Assembly: GCF_003790525.1 (NCBI RefSeq)
Contig: NZ_CP033635.1
Strand: one strand, 5' to 3'
Length of the DNA stretch: 64,000 nucleotides
DNA from: Escherichia coli
GTDB lineage: Bacteria; Pseudomonadota; Gammaproteobacteria; Enterobacterales; Enterobacteriaceae
Position numbers: made by a program. Below are positions 19,142-22,100 of this stretch, one piece after another (the stretch's first letter is position 1; every line of letters begins with the position of its first letter).

Positions 19142-22100
19142 TAATCTGAAGCAACGTAAAAAAACCCGCCCCGGCGGGTTTTTTTATACCCGTAGTATCC
19201 CCACTTATCTACAATAGCTGTACTCTTTTTGTTCATCCCCTGGAGTATTTATGTGGTTACTTGACCAGTGGGCAGAGCGTCATATTACTGAGGCACAATC
19301 CAAAGGTGAGTTTGATAATCTTCCGGGAAGTGGCGAGCCATTGATTCTGGATGATGATTCACACGTGCCACCGGAATTACGTGCGGGGTATCGCTTGCTG
19401 AAGAATGCCGGTTGCTTACCGCCAGAACTTGAGCAGCGTAGGGAAGCAATACAGCTTCTGGATATCCTCAAAGGTATCCGTCATGATGATCCGCAATATA
19501 AAGAGGTTAGTCGTCGATTGTCATTACTGGAATTGAAGCTGCGACAAGCTGGATTGAGTACCGATTTTTTACGCGGCGATTATGCTGACAAGTTGTTGGA
19601 CAAAATCTACGATAACTAGTGGAGTATGTATGTATCGCATTGGTGAGCTGGCAAAAATGGCGGAAGTAACACCCGACACGATTCGTTACTACGAAAAGCA
19701 GCAGATGATGGAGCATGAAGTACGCACCGAAGGTGGGTTTCGCCTGTATACCGAAAGCGATCTCCAGCGATTGAAATTTATCCGCCATGCCAGACAACTT
19801 GGTTTCAGTCTGGAGTCGATCCGCGAGTTGCTGTCGATCCGTATCGATCCTGAACACCATACCTGTCAGGAGTCAAAAGGCATTGTGCAGGAAAGATTAC
19901 AGGAAGTCGAAGCACGGATAGCCGAGTTGCAGAGTATGCAGCGTTCCTTGCAACGCCTTAACGATGCCTGTTGTGGGACCGCTCATAGCAGTGTTTATTG
20001 CTCGATTCTTGAAGCTCTTGAACAAGGGGCGAGTGGCGTTAAGAGTGGCTGTTGATTTTTTGCTCTGGCAGGATTACACTCGCGCCGTTAAATAACCAAT
20101 TGGAGTTTTTATGAGCCGATATCAGCATACTAAAGGGCAGATAAAGGATAATGCGATAGAAGCATTACTACATGATCCCTTATTCCGACAGCGCGTAGAG
20201 AGAAATAAGAAAGGGAAAGGCAGTTACATGCGAAAAGGAAAACATGGCAATCGGGGGAACTGGGAGGCCAGTGGCAAGAAAGTAAATCACTTTTTTACCA
20301 CTGGCCTTCTGCTTTCAGGCGCTTGTTAAGAGCGGTTATTCTGCTCTTTCAGCAAATCACGAATTTCTGTCAGTAATACTTCTTCTTTAGTTGGTGCAGG
20401 CGCGGCTGCTGGTTCTTCTTTTTTCCGATTCAGTTTGTTGATTAGCTTAATCGCCATAAAGATGGCAAAGGCTACAATCAGAAAATCAAAGACGTTTTGA
20501 ATGAAGACACCGTAATGCATCACAACAGCAGGGATATCCCCCTGCGCATCGCGTAGCGTGACAGCAAACTGTTTGAAATCGATCCCGCCAATTAATAACC
20601 CCAGAGGTGGCATAATGATATCGGCAACCAGTGAAGATACAATCTTCCCGAATGCCGCACCGATAATGACACCCACCGCCAAATCCACCACGTTCCCGCG
20701 CATCGCAAATTCGCGAAATTCTTTAATAATGCTCATGTTATTCTCCCTATGAAGCCGACAATCATAAGTCTAACAAATGTTAAGCTATTTTCCTGCCAGG
20801 AGTGAATTTAATTAATCCCTGATAATCAAAGGGAAATAATAAGGCGTCATTAGACGCCTTATTAATTACAAGAAGAAAGGACTTGGCTGGAAGAGTCTTT
20901 CGACGTCGGTAATAAACTTTTTATCTGTGAGGAACATAATTACGTGATCGCCTTGCTCAATGCGCAGATTGTCATTGGCAATCATCACATCGTTTCCACG
21001 TACCACCGCTCCAATAATCGTTCCTGGCGGTAGCTTGATTTCGTCAATGACTCTGCCGACAACGCGTGAGGTGCTTTCATCACCGTGAGCAACGGCTTCA
21101 ATAGCTTCTGCTACGCCGCGGCGCAGTGAGGAAACACCAACAATATCAGCTTTTCGCACATGGCTAAGCAACGCAGAAATAGTTGCTTGTTGCGGTGAAA
21201 TCGCAATATCGATCACGCTCCCCTGAACCAGATCCACATAAGCGCGACGCTGGATCAATACCATCACCTTTTTCGCACCCATACGTTTGGCAAGCATGGC
21301 GGACATGATATTGGCTTCGTCATCGTTGGTGACAGCAATAAACAGATCAACTTGATCGATATGTTCTTCGGCCAGCAGTTCTTGATCCGACGCATCACCA
21401 AAAAAGACGATCGTATTCTGCAACTTTTCCGCCAGTTCGGCAGCGCGCTGCTGATTACGTTCGATGAGTTTGACGCTGTAATCTTTTTCCAGACGACGCG
21501 CCAGCCCTGCACCGATATTACCACCACCAACCAGCATGATCCGCTTATACGGTTTTTCCAGTCGCTGTAATTCACTCATCACCGCGCGGATATGCTGTGA
21601 AGCGGCAATAAAGAACACTTCATCACCAGCTTCAACAATGGTCGAACCTTGCGGACGAATGGGGCGATCATGGCGGAAAATTGCTGCCACACGAGTATCG
21701 ATATGTGGCATATGTTCGCGCATGGTCGAAAGTGCATTACCAATCAGCGGGCCGCCGTAATAGGCTTTAACCACAGCCAGGCTGACTTTACCCTCAGCGA
21801 AGTTTACCACCTGCAATGCGCCGGGATACTCAATCAGTCGGTAAATATTATCGATAACCAACTGCTCTGGTGCGATCAGATGATCAATCGGTACAGCATC
21901 TGAATGAAATAGCTTATCGGCATCGCGCACGTAGTCTGGTGAGCGGATACGAGCGATGCGATTAGGGGTGTTGAAAAGTGAGTAGGCTACCTGGCAGGCA
22001 ACCATATTGGTTTCATCTGAACTGGTTACAGCAACCAGCATATCGGCGTCGTCGGCACCTGCCTCCCGCAATACGCGTGGATGAGAGCCATGCCCCTGCA

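Follow-up and report, generated by a model that had tools for sequence, protein, structure and literature searches.

The arfA gene (yhdL) of Escherichia coli K-12 reportedly carries a 3' stem-loop, described by Garza-Sanchez et al. 2011 and Chadani et al. 2011, that serves as an RNase III site and yields a non-stop mRNA. In-ORF hairpins or terminators are likewise said to have been found by Schaub et al. 2012 in proteobacterial arfA genes. The arfA hairpin is a textbook case of a gene that is by design expressed from a non-stop message, whereby the backup system of ribosome rescue senses the failure of the primary one. In the regulatory model (PMC3989581; PMC8012679), most arfA mRNA never reaches the stop codon, being cut in the stem or ended just downstream of it (PMC3989581), and arfA therefore has little or no 3' UTR. 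The convergent neighbor mscL has been drawn into the same scheme, since the RNase III-released arfA fragment, which is complementary to the mscL 3' UTR, reportedly lowers mscL mRNA stability (PMC10070815); the antisense link between the two genes is thus already published (Morra 2023). The effect on mscL is about 2-fold and comes from one laboratory (Morra 2023, PMC10070815). Here we compare with these systems an arfA locus from the window, that is, the whole 64-kb stretch of E. coli DNA that was analyzed.

The arfA locus and its hairpin

The arfA coding sequence occupies positions 20111..20329 of the plus strand (72 codons and a TAA stop codon; ORF list, Pfam, and the RefSeq annotation in SMS-3-5 and K-12). 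A 371-bp region of the window matches strain SMS-3-5 at 100% identity. The K-12 arfA locus has the same flanking genes as the window, zntR and mscL. The predicted protein has a significant profile match to Pfam family PF03889 across the N-terminal functional region (residues 4-45; E = 2.5e-25, 88.1 bits against a cut-off of 25.5), which places it in the ArfA family. This functional domain (20120..20245, plus strand) lies wholly upstream of the hairpin, and codons 61-72 (20291..20326, plus strand) encode a hydrophobic tail unique to the rare full-length protein. The encoded tail is identical to that of K-12, where full-length ArfA is unstable owing to it (PMC3989581; PMC8012679); among the relatives compared, its length and sequence are weakly conserved.

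The mscL coding sequence (20326..20736, minus strand; ORF list, Pfam, and RefSeq annotations; PF01741, E = 2.4e-47) is convergent with arfA. The arfA TAA (20327-20329, plus strand) and the mscL stop codon (20326-20328, minus strand) lie within a TTAA palindrome (20326..20329, both strands), which is the entire 4-nt overlap of the two coding sequences. Only the stop codons overlap and no sense codons are shared, an arrangement that RefSeq also annotates in SMS-3-5 and K-12. The classification of E. coli as "proximal" rather than "overlap" by Morra 2023 (PMC10070815) looks like a matter of definition, as the stop codons alone overlap, and not a conflict. The first-pass annotation had placed the repeat arms, both stop codons, and the 4-nt overlap exactly to the base. 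Its further statement that the 3' UTRs of arfA and mscL are entirely antisense to one another is mistaken in its geometry: the TTAA separates the two, and they share no sequence. Each opposes the coding sequence of the other gene, with the mscL 3' UTR (20325 down to ~20262) antisense to the arfA coding sequence and the sequence 3' of the arfA stop codon antisense to the mscL coding sequence.

Within arfA, a perfect 9-bp inverted repeat is formed by GGCCAGTGG (20266..20274, plus strand) and CCACTGGCC (20298..20306, plus strand), the arms of which span codons 52-66. This repeat is only the core of a complete mRNA hairpin at 20262..20310 (plus strand), recovered by folding and by an inverted-repeat search. 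The hairpin consists of a lower stem of 13 pairs (20262-20274/20298-20310), an upper stem of 8 pairs (20276-20283/20289-20296), a 5-nt loop, AAAUC (20284-20288), and one C.A mismatch between the two stems (C20275.A20297), for a total of 21 pairs and one mismatch. The repeat with flanking pairs that had been noted at first was thus exact as a repeat and understated as a structure, since most of the 23 nt that separate the arms are themselves paired. The RNA folding proposed as a check on this region returned the long hairpin at 20262-20310: the 56-nt segment folds at −31.4 kcal/mol (z = −7.1; 0 of 200 shuffles as stable) and ranks first among the 25,578 sliding 60-nt segments taken from the two strands of the 64 kb, the whole rrn operon included. 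Perfect 9-mer inverted repeats with loops of 3-30 nt number 52 in the window, versus ~6 in mononucleotide shuffles; what is exceptional is how long and stable the stem is as a whole, the bare 9-mer repeat being not rare.

The hairpin covers codons 51-67, after the end of the Pfam domain (codon 45) and before the stop codon, and the locus therefore has the E. coli-type arrangement of a long imperfect stem-loop in the ORF between the functional domain and the stop codon. Rfam searches, permissive over 19900-20900 and at gathering thresholds over the whole window, found no family for the hairpin, and the sole match over it was at chance level (MIR6024, 18.9 bits versus a gathering score of 72). 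A model for the arfA hairpin appears to be absent from Rfam 15.

The arfA genes of the window and K-12 differ at four bases, one of them inside the stem. At position 20305 the window has C and K-12 has T, so that a G.U pair becomes G-C, and the K-12 variant of the stem is predicted to be 2.7 kcal/mol less stable. The C is the commoner state, found in 77 of 79 Enterobacteriaceae. The proteins differ by K31R. No functional difference from the K-12 hairpin is expected.

Selection on the stem as arfA-sense RNA

The hairpin is present in 79/79 distinct Enterobacteriaceae sequences. Across these species, 96% of stem cells are paired, versus at most 64% when the partners are slid as a control; shuffle controls on related sequences such as these do not amount to probabilities. 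Half of the pairs (11 of 22) are invariant within the family, where covariation is modest, and one stem pair alternates between CG (44 sequences), UA (30), and UG (5). Compensatory changes appear at 10 of the 22 pairs once distant relatives are added. The 5' arm of the 9-bp repeat (20266-20274) is invariant in all 79 sequences, synonymous sites included, and third-codon entropy is ~0.03 bits over codons 52-55 and 62-66, which lie in the stem, whereas codons 2-48 of these genes average ~1.2 bits. The functional domain of ArfA shows the usual coding pattern, in which amino acids are conserved and third-codon positions are free to vary. The hairpin is under selection at the RNA level, beyond coding constraint.

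The substitutions also distinguish the two strands. Outside the conserved mismatch, the non-Watson-Crick cells comprise 244 G.U, which pair in the arfA sense only, against 12 A.C. Overall, the plus strand reaches 91.9% pairing and the minus strand 83.3%. Among the loci scored, the annotated arfA ORF varies in length from 68 to 93 codons, as would be expected if the stop codon is rarely used. In 80/80 Enterobacteriaceae loci mscL is convergent with arfA and abuts or overlaps it. When the window and SMS-3-5 are added to these 80 species loci, giving 82 scored sequences, the stop codons are in the TTAA arrangement in 22, abut in 36, and overlap by 6-65 nt in 24. Strong hairpins were found in 10/10 distant arfA loci (z from −3.9 to −10.4), starting at arfA nt 130-161, and in 7 of these 10 an MscL gene was not called beside arfA. 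Retention of the hairpin at distant loci without mscL as a neighbor indicates that it belongs to arfA. Computation on these sequences thus establishes the structure of the hairpin, where it lies in the ORF, how it is conserved and covaries, that selection acts on it as RNA, and that it does not depend on an adjacent mscL.

RNase III cleavage, termination, and the mscL side

In K-12, RNase III cuts arfA at nt 165/166 and 189/190 (Morra 2023, PMC10070815). We transferred these positions to the window from the published fragments, nt 166-189 and 190-stop (PMC10070815), and from the K-12 yrdG coordinates; the cleavage coordinates are those given in secondary accounts, namely, Morra 2023 and two reviews. 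The cuts would fall at 20275/20276 in the 5' arm, after codon 55, and at 20299/20300 in the 3' arm, both on the plus strand. Both sites map inside the stem, with a 2-nt offset across the helix as counted from the pairing 20275.20297, which is the outcome of the comparison with published RNase III sites that had been suggested for this locus. The sequence at both is identical to K-12, the closest difference being that at 20305. A non-stop mRNA ending at 20275 would encode ArfA 1-55. The downstream piece corresponds to yrdG (b4846), annotated in K-12 RefSeq as a 54-nt ncRNA, "arfA-derived small regulatory RNA"; transfer of that feature (3438431-3438484) by alignment places the 54-nt equivalent at 20276..20329 on the plus strand. 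This fragment is reportedly processed onward to 24-nt and 30-nt pieces (PMC10070815). Literature searches found no paper using the name yrdG, and those for Term-seq data yielded no 3' end coordinates given directly for arfA.

We assign a probability of roughly 0.92 to the reading of the hairpin at 20262-20310 as the arfA autoregulatory stem-loop, placed directly after the part encoding the active peptide, together with the non-stop mechanism that goes with it. RNase III would cut both arms of the stem, and some transcripts would instead end just 3' of it; by either route the arfA mRNA would lack a stop codon and ribosomes would stall at its 3' end. With tmRNA-SmpB available, the nascent ArfA (residues 1-55) would be tagged and degraded. 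With trans-translation saturated or absent, untagged truncated ArfA would be released and could recruit RF2 to other stalled ribosomes. Any full-length ArfA would carry the hydrophobic tail and be unstable, and the same DNA, read on the other strand, would give the convergent mscL mRNA a hairpin at its 3' end. Cleavage by RNase III, tagging by tmRNA, instability of the protein, and the effect on mscL are taken from the K-12 literature, and the same events would be expected in the strain of the window by analogy. The proposal of the first-pass annotation, that an RNase III-cleaved hairpin makes arfA mRNA a non-stop message so that truncated ArfA accumulates only when tmRNA rescue fails, is supported by the match to the K-12 element, from which the window differs by one stem base. 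No sequence feature contradicting this reading was seen in the analyses made.

The C20275.A20297 mismatch lies exactly at the mapped RNase III cut and is kept in 76/79 Enterobacteriaceae species, though a synonymous change from GGC to GGU would close it. We tentatively suggest, at well under even odds, that the conserved mismatch and the invariant lower stem, its four-fold sites included, are a selected determinant that fixes the RNase III cut so that the product ends at residue 55, or else reflect a dual constraint on the two strands. The second possibility arises because the opposite strand, as the mscL 3' UTR hairpin, has a U.G pair where the plus strand has the C.A mismatch. Such a reading of the mismatch was not found in the accessible literature, in which the cleavage is covered by Morra 2023 and two reviews.

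The main selected function could also be antisense or excludon-type crosstalk, in which the arfA small RNA or the overlap of the convergent transcripts controls mscL. The geometry is present: the mscL 3' UTR, which extends from +1 to +64 in K-12 (PMC10070815) and corresponds to 20262..20325 on the minus strand, includes the hairpin in mirror form and runs antisense to arfA codons 51-72, and convergent mscL lies over the hairpin region in the window and in 80/80 loci, with the UTR extent taken from K-12. Such tight convergent synteny throughout the Enterobacteriaceae favors crosstalk, as do the annotation of yrdG as a regulatory RNA and the appearance of the mscL-arfA pair in the ExcludonFinder list of excludons (PMC12288877). 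In addition, arfA variants with nt 160-203 restore low mscL mRNA, and stem-deleted or recoded variants fail to do so (Morra 2023, PMC10070815). However, the hairpin predates and outlasts the mscL neighborhood, the reported effects are those small ones from a single group, and the arfA fragment is either sequestered in a very stable hairpin or derived from one. Crosstalk would be an added layer that leaves the in-ORF position of the hairpin unexplained, and we consider it somewhat unlikely as the main selected function.

Alternatively, the non-stop arfA mRNA might arise mainly by premature termination at an intrinsic terminator within the ORF and not by RNase III cleavage. The tail after the stem in the window, CUUCUGCUUUC, is moderately U-rich, and in four distant arfA genes (L090, L091, L092, and L094) a clear U-run comes after the hairpin, either within the ORF or at its end. 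Against this, a consensus terminator scan of both strands did not call the hairpin, since 4 of the 8 tail bases scored are T and the threshold is 5. The combination of a GC-rich stem with a direct U-tract is lacking on both strands (plus-strand tail, UGCUUUCA; minus-strand tail, CCCAGUUC), and on the basis of the scan the hairpin is not classed as a classical intrinsic or bidirectional terminator. A stem like this one, 21 bp long and interrupted by a mismatch, is what RNase III substrates typically have. Moreover, deletion of rnc or disruption of the stem strongly raises arfA mRNA, and the C termini of ArfA fit the RNase III site (PMC3989581). The hairpin may still act as a weak or atypical terminator, in keeping with arfA 3' ends mapped just downstream of the stem in rnc mutants (PMC3989581). 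As the termination and cleavage routes are reported to coexist, termination would be a contributor and not a replacement, and we regard it as an improbable main source of the non-stop message.

A third reading, in which the hairpin serves mscL first, as a 3' end or terminator structure, and arfA merely overlaps it, is very unlikely. It would account for the end of the K-12 mscL 3' UTR at +63/+64, right after the minus-strand hairpin, and for the cleavage of the mscL UTR by RNase III in vitro (PMC10070815). The minus strand does fold well (−27.8 kcal/mol, z −6.1), and the invariable proximity of convergent mscL described above points the same way. Distant arfA genes without an mscL neighbor nevertheless retain a strong hairpin at the same ORF position, the substitutions preserve pairing in the arfA sense and not in the mscL sense, and the minus strand has no U-tract after the stem. 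The distant loci and the strand-biased substitutions lead us to reject an mscL terminator as the primary explanation, and a secondary role of the hairpin for mscL is likely. Finally, although residues EASGK and FFTTG are invariant among the Enterobacteriaceae and 9-mer repeats are not rare in the window, an origin of the repeat by chance or as a by-product of coding constraint on ArfA residues 52-66 has practically no standing, being refuted by four-fold degenerate third positions that are invariant in the stem and free elsewhere in the same gene, by the compensatory substitutions in distant relatives, and by the failure of any shuffle to fold as well. These residues also lie outside the Pfam domain and are reported to be dispensable for activity (PMC8012679).

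Comparison with described systems

The autoregulatory hairpin of arfA is real and strongly conserved, and it is already known and annotated in K-12, the derived small RNA included; its occurrence in the E. coli window is nothing new. What the comparative figures add is a compact computational confirmation that it is selected as an arfA-sense RNA structure, covering invariant synonymous sites, strand-biased substitutions, and hairpins retained at loci that lack an adjacent mscL. One small testable detail is the mismatch conserved where RNase III would cut.

The closest system is the K-12 stem-loop itself, with which the element of the window shares its gene, its position in the ORF (arfA nt 152-200), and its sequence apart from one base; the C in place of T at 20305, with ~2.7 kcal/mol of additional predicted stability, sets it apart. 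The same base is the one difference from K-12 yrdG, and as the change is genomic, complementarity between arfA and mscL is still perfect. The locus accordingly resembles the yrdG/arfA antisense RNA-mscL circuit (Morra 2023) in its 54-nt 3' fragment complementary to the mscL 3' UTR and in an identical convergent geometry. As in excludons and bidirectional 3' end hairpins, convergent transcripts overlap here at a shared palindromic, RNase III-sensitive hairpin; unlike in typical excludons, that hairpin lies inside the coding sequence of one partner and serves to remove its stop codon. The wider group of proteobacterial arfA genes has the same plan: in 10/10 distant loci a strong hairpin directly follows the conserved domain, and the stop codon lies either beyond the hairpin or within it. 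In some of these distant homologues a short GC stem is joined to a U-run in the manner of intrinsic terminators, and the neighbors are genes other than mscL, whereas the E. coli type has a long stem, an internal mismatch, and no clear U-tract.

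The arfA-mscL junction and its hairpin

Sequence evidence identifies the source as E. coli: a query of 371 bp from around the finding was matched by 5,425 of the 5,426 complete genomes of this species and was 100% identical in strain SMS-3-5. One copy of the arfA region in E. coli was in a plasmid record, and one ArfA protein cluster (P0074) carries a name that places it on a plasmid of Enterobacter hormaechei. In the RefSeq gene order, rplQ, yhdN, zntR, and arfA lie on one strand and mscL and trkA on the opposite strand. The arfA open reading frame (20111-20329, +; Pfam ArfA PF03889 at residues 4 to 45) and the mscL open reading frame (20326-20736, -; Pfam MscL PF01741) overlap by a 4-nt palindrome, TTAA, composed of nothing but the arfA TAA stop (20327-20329) and the mscL stop (20326-20328, -), so that no sense codons overlap. 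Morra et al. 2023 (PMC10070815, Fig. 1B text) class E. coli as "proximal" and not "overlap," while the K-12 RefSeq coding sequences share 4 nt; that class was probably assigned because the overlap is limited to stop codons.

The first-pass annotation had described a perfect 9-bp inverted repeat within arfA. The repeat is present and all of its coordinates are correct (GGCCAGTGG at 20266-20274 and CCACTGGCC at 20298-20306, along with both stop codons), but its extent was set too small. The 23 nt separating the two 9-mers were mostly paired upon folding, and the true hairpin spans 20262-20310 (+), with 13 pairs in the lower stem, one C20275.A20297 mismatch, 8 pairs in the upper stem, and a loop of 5 nt. 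The 56-nt hairpin segment had a predicted energy of -31.4 kcal/mol (z = -7.1), was matched in stability by 0 of 200 shuffles, and was the most stable fold among 25,578 sliding 60-nt windows covering both strands of the whole window, which rules out a chance origin. The mirror hairpin on the minus strand, in the mscL 3' untranslated region (UTR), reached -27.8 kcal/mol (z = -6.1). A consensus scan of both strands for classical terminators did not report the hairpin, because an adequate U-tract is missing on either strand.

Other structured elements were also observed in the window. The next most stable 60-nt folds (-30 to -32 kcal/mol) lie at 39486-39545 (-), 59301-59360 (+), 36431-36490 (-), and 22056-22115 (-). 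A complete rrn operon occupies 29997-35345 (16S, two tRNAs, 23S, 5S, tRNA, and a second 5S), and an alpha-operon ribosome-binding-site RNA element occupies 16210-16321. A 10-nt inverted repeat with 90% complementarity (20026-20035 and 20077-20086) flanks the stop codon of zntR and the sequence preceding arfA. Between mscL and trkA, an inverted repeat of 12 to 15 bp (20834-20867), whose minus-strand tail is rich in T, resembles a terminator, probably that of trkA; Rfam returned only weak matches at chance level for this repeat.

RNase III sites and comparison with K-12

RNase III cleaves the arfA stem-loop, and in rnc mutants the transcripts end just 3' of the repeat; both routes leave the mRNA without a stop codon, its product is tmRNA-tagged and then degraded except when trans-translation is limiting, and full-length ArfA is rare and unstable through its hydrophobic tail (PMC3989581; PMC8012679). 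Earlier work summarized by Morra et al. 2023 (PMC10070815) identified arfA nucleotides 166 to 189 and 190 to the stop as the fragments freed by RNase III. Mapped from K-12, the corresponding cuts fall between 20275 and 20276 and between 20299 and 20300, both within the stem and with a 2-nt offset across the helix. The inferred first cut lies at the conserved mismatch, immediately 3' of codon 55, which fits the reported loss of the last 17 to 18 ArfA residues (PMC8012679). K-12 RefSeq annotates a 54-nt fragment as the ncRNA yrdG, "arfA-derived small regulatory RNA," equivalent to 20276-20329 here. The main interpretation in the first-pass annotation, a known RNase III-cleaved hairpin that yields non-stop mRNA, is supported, except for its statement about the 3' UTRs. 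The element is already known and annotated.

The window and K-12 differ at four positions in arfA, one of which (20305) is in the stem. This synonymous position is C in the window and T in K-12, converting a G.U pair to G-C and making the 9-bp repeat perfect in this strain; the K-12 variant is predicted to be weaker by 2.7 kcal/mol (-28.7 versus -31.4 kcal/mol). C is the commoner state, found in 77 of 79 Enterobacteriaceae species.

Conservation and selection on the RNA

A genome scan recovered 80 Enterobacteriaceae arfA loci, which together with the window and SMS-3-5 gave 82 scored sequences. One locus (L030, NZ_CACSJJ010000125.1) is a 383-nt contig labeled Arthrobacter sp. 18067 with an Enterobacteriaceae-type arfA-mscL junction and is probably a contaminant in that assembly. 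mscL was convergent with arfA in 80/80 loci. The two stops abutted in 36 of the 82 sequences, shared 4 nt in 22, and overlapped by 6 to 65 nt in 24. The annotated arfA open reading frame varied from 68 to 93 codons (L003-L082), and the mscL stop stayed at arfA nucleotides 216 to 218 in most loci (204 to 219 overall). The arfA stop position looks unconstrained, and variable length beside a steady mscL stop is expected if the arfA stop codon is seldom used; most arfA mRNA reportedly does not reach it (PMC3989581).

The same fold was present in 79/79 distinct sequences. When the window's structure was imposed on them, 96% of cells formed standard pairs, versus at most 64% with slid partners; 11 of 22 pairs were invariant, and one stem pair alternated among CG (44), UA (30), and UG (5). 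Third-codon entropy, in averages that we computed from the per-codon table, was ~1.2 bits over codons 2 to 48 versus ~0.03 bits in stem codons 52 to 55 and 62 to 66, which include four-fold degenerate Ala, Gly, Thr, and Leu codons. These near-invariant positions show that selection works on the nucleotides here, in a protein part reported to be dispensable for ArfA activity (PMC8012679). The non-Watson-Crick cells (244 G.U versus 88 A.C) favor the arfA sense strand, and one conserved C.A mismatch, located at the cut site, accounts for 76 of the 88 A.C cells.

That mismatch, C20275.A20297, was kept in 76 of 79 sequences (U.U in one, C-G in two); a synonymous GGC-to-GGU change would close it. 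The lower stem was completely invariant. The retained mismatch and invariant stem could help to determine which site RNase III chooses, or could result from a constraint imposed by both strands. Conservation of the mismatch is a modest, testable point that perhaps extends beyond the accessible literature; primary papers may already cover it.

We also retrieved the contigs encoding 10 distant ArfA homologs from a 50%-identity representative search. All 10 loci had a strong hairpin (z of -3.9 to -10.4) starting at arfA nucleotides 130 to 161, with the stop codon inside or 3' of it, and several hairpins had U-runs resembling intrinsic terminators. Compensatory changes were found at 10 of 22 pairs (4 distant loci and 8 Enterobacteriaceae sequences). 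No adjoining MscL gene was called in 7 of the 10 loci. Together, these results assign the hairpin to arfA and reject its origin as a by-product of the mscL terminator. A further ArfA-like open reading frame (P0194) has a frameshifted middle section with its N terminus and hairpin-encoded tail intact, and probably represents either a pseudogene or an error in sequencing.

Antisense relationship with mscL

The proposal of a full antisense relationship between the two 3' UTRs was wrong, as they lie on opposite sides of TTAA. The mscL 3' UTR spans +1 to +63/64 in K-12 (PMC10070815); transferred to the window, it runs from 20325 down to ~20262 (-), antisense to arfA coding codons 51 to 72, and any sequence 3' of the arfA stop would be antisense to the mscL coding sequence. 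This antisense relationship is already published: mscL mRNA was ~2-fold lower with arfA variants that include the hairpin region, the mscL UTR was an RNase III substrate in vitro, and a 49-nt RNA from the mscL 3' UTR was detected in earlier work (PMC10070815). mscL-arfA also has an entry in a list of excludons (PMC12288877).
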